In this document: positions 53,134 through 60,086 of the stretch, one piece after another
Position numbering within the stretch: position 1 is the first letter of the stretch
Layout: every line of letters starts with the position of its first letter
Assembly: GCA_963835795.1 (NCBI GenBank)
Contig: CAWIHJ010000023.1
Location: forward strand, 9,059-73,058
DNA length: 64,000 nt
Reading direction: 5' to 3'
From: an uncultured Gammaproteobacteria bacterium
GTDB taxonomy: Bacteria; Pseudomonadota; Gammaproteobacteria; GCA-001735895
Translations under genes and position numbers: made by a program
Notes under the pieces: model-generated
Told to the model about the DNA's origin: nothing
Database searches by the model: none
The model's input: only the letters and a program-made list of their open reading frames with translations

Positions 53134-53796
53134 ATGCGCAAAATTCTGCTGATTGACGATGACGAAAAACTGGCGCAACCCTTGCGACAGTATTTTGCCC
53201 GTTTCGATCTGCAGCTCGACAATGAGATCGATCCGCTTGCGGCAATCGAACGCAATCGCAGAGAAGCCTTTGACCTGATCATACTCGACGTCATGCTGCC
53301 GCAGATCGACGGCTTCGAAACCTGCAAGCGCATCCGCAAGGAGAGCGATATCCCCATCATCATGTTGACCGCACGTGGCGAGGTCATGGATCGCGTCGTC
53401 GGACTCGAGCTAGGTGCTGATGATTACTTGCCGAAACCCTTCGAGCCGCGTGAGCTGGTGGCGCGAATACAGAATATCCTGAGGCGGCATCAACCTCCCG
53501 AATCCCGGGTTTATCGCTGGGGCGAACTGTGTCTCGACCTCGATCGCCAGCAGCTATTTCGCAAGGATGAGGTCGTCGCGCTGACGGCCGCCGAACTGGG
53601 TTTATTGTCCTTGCTGGCACAAAATCAGCAGCGCATTTTGTCGCGCGATGAAATCATGCAAACTCTGCGCGGTATCGATGCCGATATCTATAGTCGTGCT
53701 ATCGACGTGCTGATCAGTCGCCTGCGCCGCAAATTGCAATCTCCTGAACTGATCCGTACCCAACGCGGGCTGGGCTACCAGCTGGTTGGTCACTGA
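53134..53796 (+). CDS. OmpR-family response regulator, CpxR-like
   Basis: MRKILLIDDD...DLIILDVMLPQIDGFETCKRIR...IIMLTARGEVMDRVVGLELGADDYLPKPFEPRELVARIQNILRR plus a winged-helix output domain ending GLGYQLV. Confidence 0.9.
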   Translation: MRKILLIDDDEKLAQPLRQYFARFDLQLDNEIDPLAAIERNRREAFDLIILDVMLPQIDGFETCKRIRKESDIPIIMLTARGEVMDRVVGLELGADDYLPKPFEPRELVARIQNILRRHQPPESRVYRWGELCLDLDRQQLFRKDEVVALTAAELGLLSLLAQNQQRILSRDEIMQTLRGIDADIYSRAIDVLISRLRRKLQSPELIRTQRGLGYQLVGH

Positions 53797-55100
53797 TGCT
53801 GGATTATCTTGTCGGCAAGTGGCAAAGCCTGGTATTTCGGCTGCTGTTTTACTTTTTACTGGCCATATTGGCACTGGCGCTGGTGCTGGCGTTCAGTTTC
53901 AGCCAGCGCCTGCGTCCGCACATCGAACAGCAACTTCTGCCAAATGTAGAGCGCTATCTCGATTACCTGGTCGGTGATATCGGCAACCCTCCTGACCTGG
54001 GGGTTGCCCGGCAACTCGCGGACAGCCTGCCGTTTGAAATCAGGATTGAAGGACCGGGAATCGAATGGAATTCCAGCCCGGGAATCGAACCGATAGCGAG
54101 CTACGATTTCAAACCGGCGCCAGCGCCTTACGAGTCCATTTACTACAGCCACCGGCGCCATAGGGAACTGGTGCTGATCAAGCGCAATGATCTGCAATAC
54201 CTGTTCGTTGTCGAAGATGGTTTTCGGCGTGGTTCCGAGCTAAGGCACTGGCTGTTATTCGGGGGGCTGGGCACAATCCTGGTGCTGCTGTATTTCGGCA
54301 TTCGACGCCTGTTCCGGCCCATCGCCGCGCTGTCCGAGCAGGTGCGTAAAATTGGCGAAGGCGATCTGCAGCAAACCGTCGATTCCGGGAACAGGGGCGA
54401 ACTCGGGATGTTGGCGGCCGGCGTGAATCAGATGTCCGCGCAGATCCGTTCCATGCTGGAGAACAAGTCGGGCCTGTTGCTGGCGATCAGCCACGAGTTA
54501 CGCTCCCCGTTGACGCGCATGCGGGTGAACCTGGAACTGCTCGATGACAGTGATATCAAACCAGGGTTAATCGAAGATATTCGCGTGATGGAATCCCTGC
54601 TGGCAGCGATTCTTGAATCGGAGAAGTTGACCAGCGGTCATGCGCCGTTGGCGAAAAAACCGGTGGAACTCGATCGACTGGTGGAAGAGGTGGTCGACAG
54701 ACATCCAGGGCGTGATCGTATTCGTTGCCAGTTGATCCCGCTGCGCCTTGAGGTCGATGAGTTACGTGTCAAACTGTTGCTCAAGAATCTGCTCGACAAC
54801 GCGCTGCAATATTCTGCCGATGCCAGTCAGGTGGTCGAAGTCCGCCTGACCTCTAGCGAGAACAGGGCCATTCTCGAGGTGATCGATCGGGGCATCGGAA
54901 TCGCTGCGGAAGAACTTCCCCGCCTGGGTGAAGCCTTTTACCGTCCCGATAGCGCACGTGGACGCAGTACCGGTGGCTATGGTCTTGGACTCTACCTGTG
55001 CCGCCTGATCTGCGACGCTCACGAAGGCGATTTGCACATCGAAAGTGCGCCCGGAGAGGGCACCCGGGTTGAGGTCCGATTGCCTCTTGATAATAGTTGA
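53796..55100 (+). CDS. Sensor histidine kinase (2 TM, HAMP, HisKA, HATPase_c)
   Basis: H-box ISHELRSPLTRM, N-box LLKNLLDNALQY, G-boxes DRGIGI and GGYGLGL. The start overlaps the RR stop (TGATG). Confidence 0.9.
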   Translation: MLDYLVGKWQSLVFRLLFYFLLAILALALVLAFSFSQRLRPHIEQQLLPNVERYLDYLVGDIGNPPDLGVARQLADSLPFEIRIEGPGIEWNSSPGIEPIASYDFKPAPAPYESIYYSHRRHRELVLIKRNDLQYLFVVEDGFRRGSELRHWLLFGGLGTILVLLYFGIRRLFRPIAALSEQVRKIGEGDLQQTVDSGNRGELGMLAAGVNQMSAQIRSMLENKSGLLLAISHELRSPLTRMRVNLELLDDSDIKPGLIEDIRVMESLLAAILESEKLTSGHAPLAKKPVELDRLVEEVVDRHPGRDRIRCQLIPLRLEVDELRVKLLLKNLLDNALQYSADASQVVEVRLTSSENRAILEVIDRGIGIAAEELPRLGEAFYRPDSARGRSTGGYGLGLYLCRLICDAHEGDLHIESAPGEGTRVEVRLPLDNS

Positions 55101-55128
55101 CCATTTTAGTCAGGATTGTATACTGACG
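55097..55128 (+). promoter_or_regulatory. Putative sigma70 promoter of the isc operon with an overlapping inverted repeat
   Basis: TTGACC (55097-55102), 16-nt spacer, TATACT (55119-55124), lying ~30 nt upstream of the iscR ATG. The inverted repeat AGTCAG (55108-55113)-N9-CTGAC (55123-55127) spans the -10 element, as expected for an autoregulatory site. Confidence 0.45.
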
Positions 55129-55153: not shown

Positions 55154-55612
55154 ATGCGACTATCCACTAAAAGCCGATACGCGGTCACCTCACTGCTCGA
55201 TCTTGTCATGCACTCTGACAAGGGGCCGGTGTCGCTCGCCGATATTTCGATCCGCCAGGGGATTTCGTTGTCTTACCTGGAGCAGCTGTTCGCCAAGATG
55301 CGACGCAACAAGCTGGTCATCAGTACGCGCGGGCCGGGTGGTGGCTATAGTCTTGGTTGTACTCCGGACGAGGTCTGTATCGCCGACGTCATCAATGCTG
55401 TCGATGAGGCAATGCAGGTTGTCAATAAAGGTGTTAACAGCGGTTCAGCGGATTATGAACCTTGTCTTACGGAACAGCTATGGGATGAATTGAGTGCTGA
55501 GATCGAAAGCTTTCTTACCACTATTTCGCTGGCCGACATGATGCAGAATAACGAGGTTCAGGAACTTTCCCGCGCCCACGATCTGCGCCAGAATCCCCAA
55601 AATTTGCTATAG
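55154..55612 (+). CDS. iscR: Rrf2-family regulator, IscR-like
   Basis: MRLSTKSRYAVTSLLDLVMHSDKGPVSLADISIRQGISLSYLEQLFAKMRRNKLVISTRGPGGGYSLG is collinear with E. coli IscR, and it is the first gene of the isc cluster. Confidence 0.85.
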   Translation: MRLSTKSRYAVTSLLDLVMHSDKGPVSLADISIRQGISLSYLEQLFAKMRRNKLVISTRGPGGGYSLGCTPDEVCIADVINAVDEAMQVVNKGVNSGSADYEPCLTEQLWDELSAEIESFLTTISLADMMQNNEVQELSRAHDLRQNPQNLL

Positions 55613-55616
55613 ACCG

Positions 55617-56765
55617 ATGTCGGTATACCTCGACCATAATGCAACCTCGCCGATGCACCCGGAAGTGGTGGATGCGATGCTGCCGTACTTGCACAATCCG
55701 CCTGGCAATCCATCCAGCCTGCACAGTTTTGGGCGGATGGCGCGTTCGGCAGTCGAATCGGCGCGCGGCCAGGTGGCTGATTTGTTGCATTGTGCTCCGG
55801 CCGATGTGGTATTCACTTCCGGCGGCACCGAGGCCAACAACTTGCTGCTGAAGGGTTACATCGATCGCGACAATCCAGCCTCGATCGTGAGCAGCGAAAT
55901 CGAGCATCCCAGCATTCTGCAACCGCTGCAGCAACTTCGCGAGGCAGGGGTGCCGGTAACGCTGTTGAAGTCGGATAGTAGCGGACAAATTGACCTGCAA
56001 GCGGCTAGCGAAGCACTCGCGACCTTGAAACCACAACTACTATCGATTATTTACGCCAATAACGAAACCGGTGTGATTCAGCCACTCGAAGAGCTTGCGG
56101 CAATGGTCGATCGCGATACTTGCCTGGTGCACAGTGATGCAACCCAGGCCGTGGGTAAAATTGACCTGGACCTGTCGCAGCTTGCGCTCGACGCGATCAG
56201 TTTCTCGGCGCATAAATTGCGCGGTCCCCAGGGCGTTGGTGTGCTGGTCGTCAAACGCAAGCCCCGCAGCCTGCTGATCAGCGGGGGAGAGCAGGAAAAC
56301 AAACGGCGCGGCGGCACTGAAAATGTTGCCGGTATTGTAGGGCTCGGAAAGGCGGCACAACTGGCTGGCCTTGAAATGGAGCAGCGCAGGCATTATCTGA
56401 GTCAACTACGGGACGTGTTCGAGAGCAGGCTGGCAACGATACCGGGTAGCGTCGTGTTTGGACAACAGGCCCCACGCTTGCCCAACACTACGTTTTTTGC
56501 GTTGCCTTATTATCATGGGGAAACCCTGTTAATGGAACTTGATCGCTCGGGTTTTGCGTTGTCCAGCGGATCGGCCTGCCACAGTATGGTGACCGAACCG
56601 AGCCACGTCCTCACGGCAATGTCGGTTGATAGCAACCTGGCATTAAACGCGATTCGCGTCAGTTTTGGTATGAGCAACACTTTGCAGGACGTTGAGTTGC
56701 TGGTCACCAGGTTACATGAACTGGTAAACAAGCTCCCGGCGGTAATTCGCCAGGCAGCGGGATAG
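55617..56765 (+). CDS. iscS: Class I cysteine desulfurase (IscS/NifS-like, short C-terminus)
   Basis: [24 protein letters not shown] (PLP lysine) and the active-site loop SSGSACHS. It is 382 aa and ends shortly after the catalytic domain. Confidence 0.85.
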
Positions 56766-56776
56766 TAGAGACGATT

Positions 56777-57100
56777 ATGGCAATACAACTTAGCGACATC
56801 GCCGCATCACGCGTGCAGAATTTTCTCGATAACCGCGGCAAGGGTATCGGCCTCAGGTTGGGGGTCAAAACCACCGGCTGCTCCGGGCTGGCTTATGTTA
56901 TCGAATTCGTCGATGAGATTCGCGACGATGATGAAGTGTTCGAGAGCAAGGGCGTCAAAGTGGTCGTGGACAAGAAAAGCCTGATGTTTCTCGATGGCAC
57001 CGAGGTGGATTTTTCCAAGGTCGGGCTCAACGAAGGGTTTCAGTTCAAGAATCCGAACGCCAAGGAAGCCTGTGGTTGCGGTGAGAGTTTTACCGTCTGA
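56777..57100 (+). CDS. iscA: Iron-sulfur cluster A-type carrier
   Basis: [16 protein letters not shown]...[14 protein letters not shown] carries the three conserved Cys. 107 aa. Confidence 0.9.
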
Positions 57101-57117
57101 ACGATTCATCCAGTTCG

Positions 57118-57657
57118 ATGCAGTCCCCTGATCTTAGTCAGAATTATTTTGAGTTGTTTGGCTTGCCAACCGCGTTCGAGGTAGATCGTGGCCAGTTGCG
57201 ATCCGCGCAACGGCGTTTACAGGCGGATTACCATCCCGATCGACACGTGAACGGCAGTGACCGCGATCGGCGGGTGTCGGTGCAGGTTGCCTCCTGGATT
57301 AACCAGGCCTACGACACCCTGCAGGATCCGGTCAAACGCGCACGCTATTTGCTCGAAATCAGCGGCGCCGACATACCCGATGATTCGGCGACTACCTCGG
57401 ATACCGCTTTCCTGATGGAACAGATCGAATTAAGGGAAGAAATTGAAGCCTGTCGTGACGCAGCAGATGGTCTGCAGCGCAGCCAGCAGGTGGCAGTGCA
57501 GCTCGCCCAGCGGGCTCGCGATCTGGCCGCTGAATTCGTTGCCGCTTTTACCGCGGGCGAACAGCTAAAGGCAACGCAGGTCAGCCATAAAATGCAATTT
57601 ATTCAGCGTCTCCAGCTGCAACTGGATGAGCTGCAGTTCGAACTTGAGGGTAAGTGA
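57118..57657 (+). CDS. hscB: Fe-S assembly co-chaperone HscB (J-type)
   Basis: [34 protein letters not shown] (J-domain HPD motif) plus a C-terminal helical domain. Confidence 0.9.
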
Positions 57658-59528
57658 TGGCGTTGTTGCAGATTTCCGAACCGGGCGAGTCAGCAGCGCC
57701 GCATCAGCATCGTTTTGCGGCGGGCATCGACCTGGGTACGACCAATTCGCTGGTAGCCACGCTGCGCAGTGGTGAGGCAGTGTGCCTGGCCGATGAGCAG
57801 GGACGCGTATTATTGCCCTCGATAGTGCACTACTCAGAGACAGGCATCCTGGTCGGTTACGAAGCTGCCGAACAGCAGGCCAACGATCCAATGAATGCCA
57901 TCGCTTCAGTGAAACGGTTGATGGGCCGTGGCAGTCAGGACGTCATGCGCCTGGGCAATGTTTTACCCTACGAACTTGTCGCCCAGCAAGACAGCAATGT
58001 GCCACGTATCCGCACTCGACGTGGTGATTTCACTGCGGTTGAAGTGTCGGCAGAAATTCTGCGTGCGCTGGCCCAACGCGCACGACAGAGTGTCGGTGCC
58101 GATCTGGAAGGGGTCGTCATCACCGTGCCCGCTTATTTCGACGATGCCCAGCGTCAGGCTACCCGTGACGCCGCAACCCTGGCCGGGTTGAATTTGTTCC
58201 GACTGTTAAACGAACCGACAGCGGCCGCCGTTGCCTACGGTCTGGACCAGGACAAGGATGGTTTGATTGCCGTTTACGATCTGGGTGGTGGCACCTTTGA
58301 TATTTCACTGCTGCAACTCAATCGTGGCGTTTTCGAGGTGTTGTCAACGGGCGGCGATTCATCGCTCGGGGGTGATGATATGGATCATGCCATCGGTGAG
58401 TGGATTATCGTTGAGGCCGGTTTCGACAATGTGAATGCGACTCTCGCGCGGCGTATTTTGCTGGCGTCACGCGCTGCCAAGGAATCCCTGACTACAGCCG
58501 ACTCGACCAGTATTGTGATCGAAGATGCGCAGCATTCCTGGTCGGGCACGCTGACGCGGGCGAATTTCGATCAGCTGGTAAAGAGTCTCATTTCCAATAC
58601 CCTGGCGGCCTGTCGGCGTGTTCTGCACGATGCCGGGGTGAAACAAGCCGAAATCGATGAAGTCATCATGGTCGGTGGCTCTACCAGGGTGCCCCTGGTA
58701 CAGGCAATGGTCGCCGAATTTTTCGACTGTGAGCCCATGTGCAAGCTCGATCCAGACCGGGTTGTTGCGCTCGGGGCCGCGATTCAGGCGGATATCCTCG
58801 CGGGAAACAAGCCTGACAGTGACATGCTGTTGCTCGATGTGTTGCCCCTGTCGCTAGGCATCGAAACCATGGGTGGCTTGAGCGATAAAATTATTCCCCG
58901 CAATACCGCCATACCGGTAGCGCGTGCCCAGGAGTTCACTACTTTCAAGGATGGTCAGACGGCGATGTCGGTGCACGTGGTGCAGGGTGAACGCGAGCTG
59001 GTTTCCGATTGCCGCTCGCTGGCGCGTTTCGAGTTGCGAGGGTTTCCGCCGATGACGGCTGGCGCTGCCCGCATACGTGTTACCTACCAGGTTGACGCCG
59101 ACGGCTTGATGTCGGTCACTGCAGTTGAAACCAGCAGCGGTGTCAGTGCCGAAATCGAGGTCAAACCCTCTTATGGCCTGACCGACGGGGAAATCGAAAC
59201 GATGTTGCTGGCGTCGACGCAATACGCGCGCGAAGACATCGAATTACGCATGTTGAAAGAACAACAGGTGGAGGCGCAGCGTGTCATCGAAGCAATCAAT
59301 TCGGCGCTTGCCGAAGATGGCGACCAACTGTTAAGCGCCGCGGAGCGCGAGATTATTATTGAGCATCGCGAGGCGCTGGCGGCAGTGCTGGAAACGGCCA
59401 CCACAGCAGAGCTGAAACGGTTGATCAAGGAAGTGGAGGCCGCCAGTGAATTTTACGTTGCGCGCCGCATGAACCACAGTGTGCAGCAAGCATTGGCTGG
59501 CAAACAAATTAACGAGGTTGATGTTTAA
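57657..59528 (+). CDS. hscA: Fe-S assembly chaperone HscA (Hsp70 class)
   Basis: [10 protein letters not shown]...[12 protein letters not shown]...[10 protein letters not shown]... The ATG at 57657 overlaps the hscB stop (TGATG). The track ORF starts one codon earlier at GTG 57654. Confidence 0.95.
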
Positions 59529-59867
59529 ATGACGAGGCTAACTATATTGCCCCACGATGAAATTTGCCCGCAGGGCGCGGTCATCGAGGCCGAACCGGGG
59601 ATGAGCCTGTGTGATGCGATGCTCAGTAACGGCATCGAGATAGAGCATGCCTGTGAAAAGTCCTGTGCCTGCACGACCTGCCACGTTCACGTGCGCGAAG
59701 GCTTCGACTCGCTCGCAGAATCAACCGAAGACGAAGACGATTATCTCGACAAGGCCTGGGGTCTGGACATGGATTCCCGGCTCAGTTGCCAGGCCGTAGT
59801 CGGTGATGAAGAATTGACCATAGAGATACCAAAGTACACCATCAACATGGTTTCCGAGAATCATTAA
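59529..59867 (+). CDS. fdx: [2Fe-2S] ferredoxin, adrenodoxin type
   Basis: CEKSCACTTCHV...LSCQ Cys pattern. 112 aa, immediately after hscA. Confidence 0.9.
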   Translation: MTRLTILPHDEICPQGAVIEAEPGMSLCDAMLSNGIEIEHACEKSCACTTCHVHVREGFDSLAESTEDEDDYLDKAWGLDMDSRLSCQAVVGDEELTIEIPKYTINMVSENH

Positions 59868-59885
59868 ATAACCGAGGAGCGAACA

Positions 59886-60086
59886 ATGAGCCTTAAGTGG
59901 ACAGATACCCTGGATATCGCCATTGAACTGAGCGATCTGCACGCAGATGTCGATCCGCAATACGTTCGTTTCACTGATTTGCATGCCTGGGTATGTGCGC
60001 TGGATGAATTCGACGACGATCCGCAACACTCGAATGAAAAGATCCTGGAGGCGATTCAAATGGCCTGGATCGATGAAGCGGACTGA
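59886..60086 (+). CDS. iscX: Fe-S assembly protein IscX (YfhJ)
   Basis: [46 protein letters not shown] matches the IscX pattern. 66 aa, last gene of the cluster. Confidence 0.85.

Follow-up and report, generated by a model that had tools for sequence, protein, structure and literature searches.

An isc operon without iscU in an uncultured gammaproteobacterium and the second locus that carries the scaffold gene

Why would an iron–sulfur cluster (ISC) operon keep the genes for two chaperones and lack the gene for the scaffold that they serve? The question is raised by a 64,000-nucleotide stretch of DNA from an uncultured gammaproteobacterium (hereafter the window; contig CAWIHJ010000023.1 of assembly GCA_963835795.1, positions 9,059 to 73,058). 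A sequence-only reading of the window had described an operon of the order iscR-iscS-iscA-hscB-hscA-fdx-iscX, with 11 nt between the desulfurase gene and iscA and with neither iscU nor a remnant of it. As explanations it offered an IscU encoded elsewhere, another scaffold as the chaperone client, or a pathway rewired around IscA. Here we report that a canonical iscU lies at a second site in the same genome. Its absence from the operon very probably reflects a relocation that left the ISC genes at two chromosomal sites, in a pathway that is not rewired.

Two loci for one ISC system

The window operon, locus A (55154-60086), runs on one strand. The open reading frame (ORF) listing and the NCBIfam models agree with the order described earlier and with the 11-nt gap between the desulfurase stop and the iscA start, the desulfurase being a NifS-like protein, here called NifS2. 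Gene identities were taken from NCBIfam models with curated cut-offs, above which five of the genes score (iscA, hscB, hscA, fdx and iscX).

55154..55612, plus strand: iscR2, an IscR paralogue, 152 aa
55617..56765, plus strand: nifS2, 382 aa, NifS-like, a class V aminotransferase/cysteine desulfurase with a class I active site
56777..57100, plus strand: iscA, an A-type Fe–S carrier, 107 aa (TIGR02011, 175.7 bits; cut-off 150.6)
57118..57657, plus strand: hscB, a J-type co-chaperone (TIGR00714, 95.9 bits; cut-off 46.75)
57654..59528, plus strand: hscA, an Hsp70-type Fe–S chaperone (NF003520, 943.6 bits; TIGR01991, 859 bits; both above their cut-offs)
59529..59867, plus strand: fdx, the ISC [2Fe-2S] ferredoxin (TIGR02007, 177.2 bits; cut-off 132.1)
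59886..60086, plus strand: iscX (TIGR03412, 116 bits; cut-off 40.4)

Neither the ORF listing of locus A nor a whole-genome search with NifU_N (PF01592) revealed iscU or a remnant of it in the operon, as had been claimed. The sole strong match in the genome, and the only U-type scaffold found, lies on another contig, C89. The genome (labelled G000) comprises 129 contigs and 3.78 Mb, at 79% completeness and 3.75% contamination, with the window on contig C23. The match belongs to a short unit, locus B:

G000:C89:7390-5280, minus strand: locus B, iscR1-iscS-iscU, outside the window; unrelated TRAP-transporter genes then follow
G000:C89:5657-5280, minus strand: iscU, 125 aa (PF01592, 182 bits)

The IscU of locus B keeps C37/D39/C63/H105/C106 and the motifs GAPACGD, GCGSAIA and LPPVKIHC, the last including the chaperone motif LPPVK. 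IscR1 (157 aa) has the full Cys3-His ligand set. IscS (407 aa) aligns without gaps to residues 1-404 of E. coli IscS at ~80% identity and retains the C-terminal helix alpha12 (379-391), including LSPLWDMYK; this helix is required for IscU binding (Shi et al. 2010, PMC2854127). Beyond the window IscA, this 79% complete genome yielded a single A-type carrier, on contig C1. Genome-wide, the set expected of an ISC system is complete (IscU with three Cys and LPPVK, IscS with alpha12, HscB, HscA, Fdx, IscA and IscX), and its genes are divided between two loci, each on a contig of its own, instead of forming a single iscRSUA-hscBA-fdx(-iscX) operon. The genome-wide scaffold search that the sequence-only reading had recommended is answered by this LPPVK-bearing protein, and the first of the three explanations, an IscU encoded elsewhere, is borne out.

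The chaperones, too, look like those of an IscU-dependent system. We take residues L92, M93, L96, E97, E100 and F153 of HscB to form the IscU-docking patch. Aligned to E. coli HscB (1FPO), the window protein has the HPD motif and keeps L92, M93, E97, E100 and F153, with L96 replaced by I. Because the patch and the HPD motif are intact and the locus-B IscU has LPPVK, the simplest reading is a canonical HscB/HscA–IscU cycle, with the locus-B IscU as the predicted client. The puzzle of chaperones without a client thus becomes an ordinary one: the client gene sits elsewhere. An alternative scaffold as client loses its ground here, given the intact patch and LPPVK; moreover, neither SufB/D (PF01458) nor Nfu (PF01106) was found in the genome, a provisional result for an assembly that is 79% complete.

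The same layout recurs among relatives of the source organism, a lineage that is probably Woeseiaceae/Woeseiales, bacteria of marine sediments. The order iscR2-nifS2-iscA-hscB-hscA was present in 12/12 loci of the genus first examined, and representatives from each of the family's four genera have the locus A layout together with a separate iscR1-iscS-iscU locus; this family alone represents the order among the genomes searched. All genomes checked, with or without nifS2, keep an iscU with LPPVK. A 1.9-Mb contig of one relative (G033) holds both loci, separated by 411 kb, and in a single-contig genome (G036) the distance is ~2.07 Mb. The split is a trait of the lineage, seen in all genera searched, and not an artefact. 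This comparison of isc loci, likewise recommended earlier, fits what the sequence-only reading would have regarded as a trivial relocation in two respects: a canonical iscU is present elsewhere and the arrangement is common in the family.

The concern that an assembly error had removed iscU can be laid to rest. Such an artefact, in which the iscS-iscU contig would stem from another organism or iscS-iscU would have been dropped from the operon, might be suspected from the fragmentation, incompleteness and contamination of the bin. However, the junction of nifS2 stop, short gap and iscA recurs in >30 independent assemblies, both loci share one contig in G033 and G036, and, of 120 contigs, C23 is the 11th closest and C89 the 16th closest to the tetranucleotide mean of the bin. 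The IscS tree also mirrors the NifS2 and taxon tree. By tetranucleotide composition and the single-contig relatives this explanation was ruled out, and we regard it as hardly conceivable.

Two further features were noted in g15, one genus of the family. An insert of ~2.5 kb separates fdx from iscX at locus A (L071 11250-13756, G082:C1). A third locus (L073, G082:C4 ~278.8-281.2 kb) encodes an IscA-like protein, an IscU/NifU-like protein (50% to IscU) and a 403-aa NifS-like desulfurase; near-identical in type to a locus of a distant family (L019, G027:C3), it may be a nitrogen fixation (NIF)-type or other accessory Fe–S unit.

The desulfurase of locus A

The desulfurase of locus A had been described as a 382-aa protein that lacks the C-terminal tail used by IscS in its interaction with IscU. 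The tail is indeed absent, but the protein is not a tail-less IscS; it is a NifS-like paralogue encoded in the same genome as a full-length IscS. The best NCBIfam model for it is NifS (TIGR03402), at 398 bits against a cut-off of 530.75, and it also falls below the cut-offs of the IscS models (TIGR02006, 292 against 643; NF010611, 309 against 548). Its neighbours are isc genes and not nif genes, and it does not qualify as the nitrogenase-dedicated NifS. It shares 38% identity with the IscS encoded at locus B. In a maximum-likelihood tree, the Woeseiales NifS2 proteins form a clade (100/100) that is sister to the iscR-proximal (tandem-1) desulfurases of two outgroup genomes, G020 and G029 (94/81), and stands apart from the IscS clade (100/99); the NifS2 branch has a length of 0.68, against 0.05 for IscS. 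A recent duplication of iscS was ruled out as its origin by this tree position and the 38% identity.

The two outgroups, from two other gammaproteobacterial families, carry iscR-NifS-like-iscS-iscU-iscA-hscB-hscA-fdx-iscX. When one genome was surveyed from each of 150 families of the class, a NifS-like gene lay directly adjacent to iscS in at least 19 (~13%), and Alphaproteobacteria/Rickettsiales loci show the same NifS-like/IscS tandem. Because of the tree and these tandem layouts, NifS2 is best understood as an older NifS-like paralogue that has long occupied the place next to iscR, and not as an IscS cut short. It is the positional orthologue of the gene between iscR and iscS in many other Gammaproteobacteria, and the change in this lineage would be that iscS-iscU no longer adjoins it.

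Two other desulfurase-related proteins were met in this work. A further class I desulfurase of ~380 aa, 41-44% identical to both IscS and NifS2, occurs in some species of the genus (L078, G049:C5; L079, G018:C123); it forms a clade of its own, and the window genome lacks it. A long class V aminotransferase of the window genome (G000:C4:16059-17258; open frame ~489 aa; Aminotran_5, 262 bits) has a CFCAHPY motif and no active-site loop of the SufS/IscS type; it served as the tree outgroup and has a very long branch.

For a comparison of functional residues, numbering was carried over through the gapless alignment of the C89 IscS with E. coli IscS, and interfaces were defined according to Shi et al. 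2010 (PMC2854127) and PMC11302665. The class I active site (His104, Asp180, Gln183, His205, Lys206 for pyridoxal 5'-phosphate, Cys328 in the SSGSAC loop and Arg354) is kept in 26/26 NifS2 orthologues, and NifS2 appears catalytically competent. On the partner surface, which in IscS includes Trp45 and Arg220/223/225, Trp45 is replaced by Arg in all 26 and Arg225 is deleted; there is no conservation at Arg116, Arg237 or Arg340, nor is Glu347 kept; at the IscU interface, NifS2 differs from IscS at E309, A316 and E347. The protein ends at about position 382 of E. coli IscS, without helix alpha12 (LSPLWxMYK) and with a clade-specific conserved tail of its own, KLPAxxRQAA. Judged by these residues, much of the surface with which IscS binds IscU, TusA/ThiI and CyaY/IscX is predicted to be missing from NifS2.

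Several species have lost the gene altogether. Clean deletions in four species of the genus (G058, G069, G043 and G057) leave iscR2 followed by iscA after a gap of 110-180 nt; all four genomes keep iscS-iscU, and iscR2, iscA and hscBA also remain. Elsewhere nifS2 is broken: in G017 it lacks its N-terminal part, contains an in-frame stop and has Asn in place of Lys206; in G014 only ~80 C-terminal codons are left; and in G003 it has an internal stop. A tree of IscR2, IscA and HscB forces at least two independent losses, in {G017, G058, G069} (100/100) and in {G057, G043} (100/99), and places G014 elsewhere. Because it has been deleted or broken independently, at least two to four times within the genus, while the rest of the isc genes stayed, nifS2 is dispensable there.

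These losses tell against a pathway rewired around IscA, the third explanation offered earlier. In its most explicit form, NifS2 and IscA would work with HscBA, Fdx and IscX in a parallel route independent of IscU, IscA being both scaffold and chaperone client. The 11-nt spacing of nifS2 and iscA would suit such a route, as would the lack of the IscU-binding helix alpha12 in a protein with a conserved tail of its own and the existence of free iscR-nifS-like-iscA modules in other genomes (G221, G111 and G171). However, iscA-hscBA-fdx-iscX and iscSU are always kept where nifS2 is lost, HscB retains its IscU-specific docking residues, IscU with LPPVK is found in every genome checked, even without nifS2, and the free modules elsewhere lack hscBA. 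We consider the route very unlikely, and relocation of iscU remains the preferred account.

Operators and IscR paralogues

Each of the two loci has its own promoter with a type-1-like IscR box.

55093-55117, plus strand: locus A IscR type-1-like box, ATAGTTGACCATTTTAGTCAGGATT, 22/25 matches to the E. coli type-1 consensus
55097-55102 and 55119-55124, plus strand: locus A promoter, -35 TTGACC and -10 TATACT; the box overlaps the -35 element
G000:C89:7404-7428 (L003): locus B box, ATTCCTGACTAAATTAGTCAGGAAT, a perfect 25-nt palindrome, 23/25 matches to the E. coli type-1 consensus

The locus A promoter is the best sigma70-like match in its region (10/12), and its box is invariant in 32 aligned upstream regions from four genera. 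The locus B box comes immediately after a promoter of the form TTGACC-16-TATAAT, and 13 nt separate its end from the iscR1 ATG; this element, too, is invariant across genera in the upstream alignment. When the 3.78-Mb genome was searched with the E. coli type-1 consensus (at least 20/25 with a GAC...AGTC core; a search confined to type-1 sites), the two isc promoters were the only sites returned. In outgroups G029 and G111 the box covers the -35 element, as at locus A, and outgroup G020 has both this box and one after the -10 element, as at locus B. Since the outgroup boxes sit over the -35 element, locus A is taken to keep the ancestral promoter position. By analogy with IscR regulation in E. 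coli (review PMC8593673), we infer that [2Fe-2S]-holo-IscR1 represses both units through their type-1 boxes.

The surroundings of the two boxes have features of their own. At locus A, the TGA stop (55098-55100) of the upstream histidine-kinase gene (53796-55100) falls inside the -35 hexamer; four relatives (L008, L009, L012 and L028) have another upstream gene with the promoter and box unchanged. At locus B, the palindromic box lies inside the predicted 5' leader and could also fold as an mRNA hairpin near the ribosome-binding site.

The regulators of the two loci differ in their cluster ligands. IscR2 scores below the cut-offs of the IscR models (TIGR02010, 165 bits against 207.55; NF008110, 161.5 against 275) and above that of the Rrf2 superfamily model (130.8 bits against 73.3). 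Its recognition helix (ISLSYLEQLF, with S40, E43 and Q44) and wing (RGPGGGY) are intact, invariant and identical to those of IscR1. In all 33 IscR2 orthologues, from four genera, Cys is absent at positions 92 and 98 and Glu replaces His107, which leaves only the Cys104 ligand, inside an invariant EPCLTE.LW motif. The full C-X5-C-X5-C-X2-H pattern is kept in IscR1 and in all outgroup IscRs, including those of stand-alone iscR-nifS-iscA modules. IscR1 and IscR2 each form a 100/98 clade of their own within gammaproteobacterial IscR. A second, genus-specific Cys occurs in 30 of the 33 IscR2 sequences (VCIADV; alignment column 74, window ~55373-55375); the IscR2 proteins of the three remaining genera have Ser or Asp in this column, where IscR1 and outgroup IscRs have Ser, Ala or Met.

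IscR2 is not assumed to be cluster-free, because an IscR of Rhodobacter sphaeroides with a single Cys still binds an Fe–S cluster (Remes et al. 2015, PMC4618611). A bolder proposal would place IscR2 in a novel functional class among IscR proteins, as a paralogue no longer tied to canonical [2Fe-2S] sensing (it would work without a cluster or sense through its invariant Cys104) that partitions control of the ISC regulon between the building module (iscR1SU) and the delivery module, with the IscR-proximal NifS-like desulfurase as a dedicated sulfur donor for IscA or IscR, and not for IscU. We offer it tentatively and think it doubtful.

History of the split and comparison with known systems

Under relocation, the ancestor would have had an iscR-nifS2-iscS-iscU-iscA-hscBA-fdx-iscX operon, from which iscS-iscU split off together with a duplicate of iscR (locus B); IscR2 would then have lost three of its four cluster ligands. 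Locus B would now be the cluster-building core (iscR1, iscS and iscU), and locus A would hold the delivery and support genes (iscA, hscB, hscA, fdx and iscX) behind IscR2 and the accessory NifS2. HscB/HscA would act on IscU made at locus B, and repression of both promoters by [2Fe-2S]-IscR1 would co-regulate the two halves. IscR2 would add an input independent of the canonical cluster, and NifS2 would be a non-essential extra sulfur donor whose partner is not IscU bound in the manner of IscS.

A different history could have led to the same present-day function. A stand-alone iscR-NifS-like-iscA module, its IscR with the full Cys3-His set, occurs in three unrelated gammaproteobacterial families:

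L097, G221:C1 ~1.486 Mb: stand-alone module
L100, G111:C26: stand-alone module
L101, G171:C52: stand-alone module

In the closed genome G221, iscS-iscU-iscA-hscBA-fdx lies 528 kb from the module, without an iscR of its own and with a clpX-like gene upstream. Two ancestral units, iscR-nifS-iscA and iscR-iscS-iscU-iscA-hscBA-fdx-iscX, might thus have recombined at or near iscA, moving hscBA-fdx-iscX behind the nifS module. The existence of such modules, the distance in G221 and the presence at each Woeseiales locus of its own IscR, both inside the gammaproteobacterial IscR group, are compatible with this course of events. However, 5/5 genomes checked have no remnant of iscA behind the locus B iscU, and the window IscA is nearer to the hscBA-linked IscA of the outgroups (62-66%) than to the IscA of stand-alone modules (53-58%). 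Moreover, in a desulfurase tree that took in no genes of the stand-alone type, NifS2 is most closely related to the tandem-1 desulfurases of the complete G020 and G029 operons. On this evidence, recombination of two units is unlikely, and the split of a single operon is the history that we favour.

Several points weigh against this account nonetheless. The stand-alone modules allow a history with two ancestral loci. The IscR tree does not resolve the order of IscR2 and IscR1 relative to G020 and G029, and with it the order of events. The failure to find SufB/D and Nfu is, as stated, provisional. In E. coli, Glu43 keeps apo-IscR off type-1 sites; IscR2 keeps this residue, and by E. coli rules a cluster-less IscR with Glu43 is not expected on such sites.

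The locus is a case of relocation with regulator duplication, and the resulting bipartite ISC system is a variant of the known one, with a ligand-poor IscR paralogue and a decaying accessory desulfurase. It offers a natural, order-wide separation of ISC building genes from delivery genes, in which each half has its own IscR and IscR operator. An IscR copy without most of its cluster ligands, conserved in four genera, provides a natural test of an apo-type IscR beside a sensing copy. The NifS-like desulfurase between iscR and iscS is widespread and apparently unstudied, and the natural knock-outs in the genus show its dispensability. Bacteria of the host group are very numerous in marine sediments, which makes the arrangement a common one in nature in quantitative terms. 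Among open-access papers and preprints, we found none on the split ISC arrangement, on IscR2 or on the function of the IscR-proximal NifS-like gene, and isc genes go unmentioned in a metatranscriptome paper on Woeseiales (PMC7451513).

Compared with iscRSUA-hscBA-fdx-iscX of E. coli and Azotobacter, all components are present and orthologous, and a type-1 IscR box likewise overlaps the promoter. Unlike in those organisms, the genes occupy two distant sites, IscR occurs as two paralogues (one without three of the four ligands), an extra NifS-like desulfurase is encoded, and no SUF system was found in this 79% complete genome.

If the structure of Archaeoglobus fulgidus IscS (PDB 4EB5) is, as we take it to be, one with IscU bound, then IscU binding would not be excluded by a short C-terminus alone. 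That protein, annotated 'Probable cysteine desulfurase 2', is a class I enzyme of 382 aa, equal in length to NifS2, whereas NifS2 departs from E. coli-type IscS at the three IscU-interface positions named above.

Closest in layout are the tandem iscR-nifS-like-iscS-iscU operons of Gammaproteobacteria and Alphaproteobacteria/Rickettsiales, with whose short IscR-proximal desulfurases (~370-385 aa) NifS2 groups; PDB 4IXO, annotated 'NifS-like protein', is cited with the tandem-type desulfurases of Alphaproteobacteria/Rickettsiales. Unlike its counterparts in these operons, NifS2 no longer lies beside iscS-iscU, has a long branch and is encoded by a gene that is decaying in several species. The IscR of Rhodobacter sphaeroides (PMC4618611) is likewise without the canonical Cys3-His set and has a single Cys in its C-terminal part. 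It is the sole IscR of its host and binds a cluster, with its Cys at a non-homologous position, whereas the Cys of IscR2 is at the canonical position 104 and its host also has IscR1, with the full ligand set.

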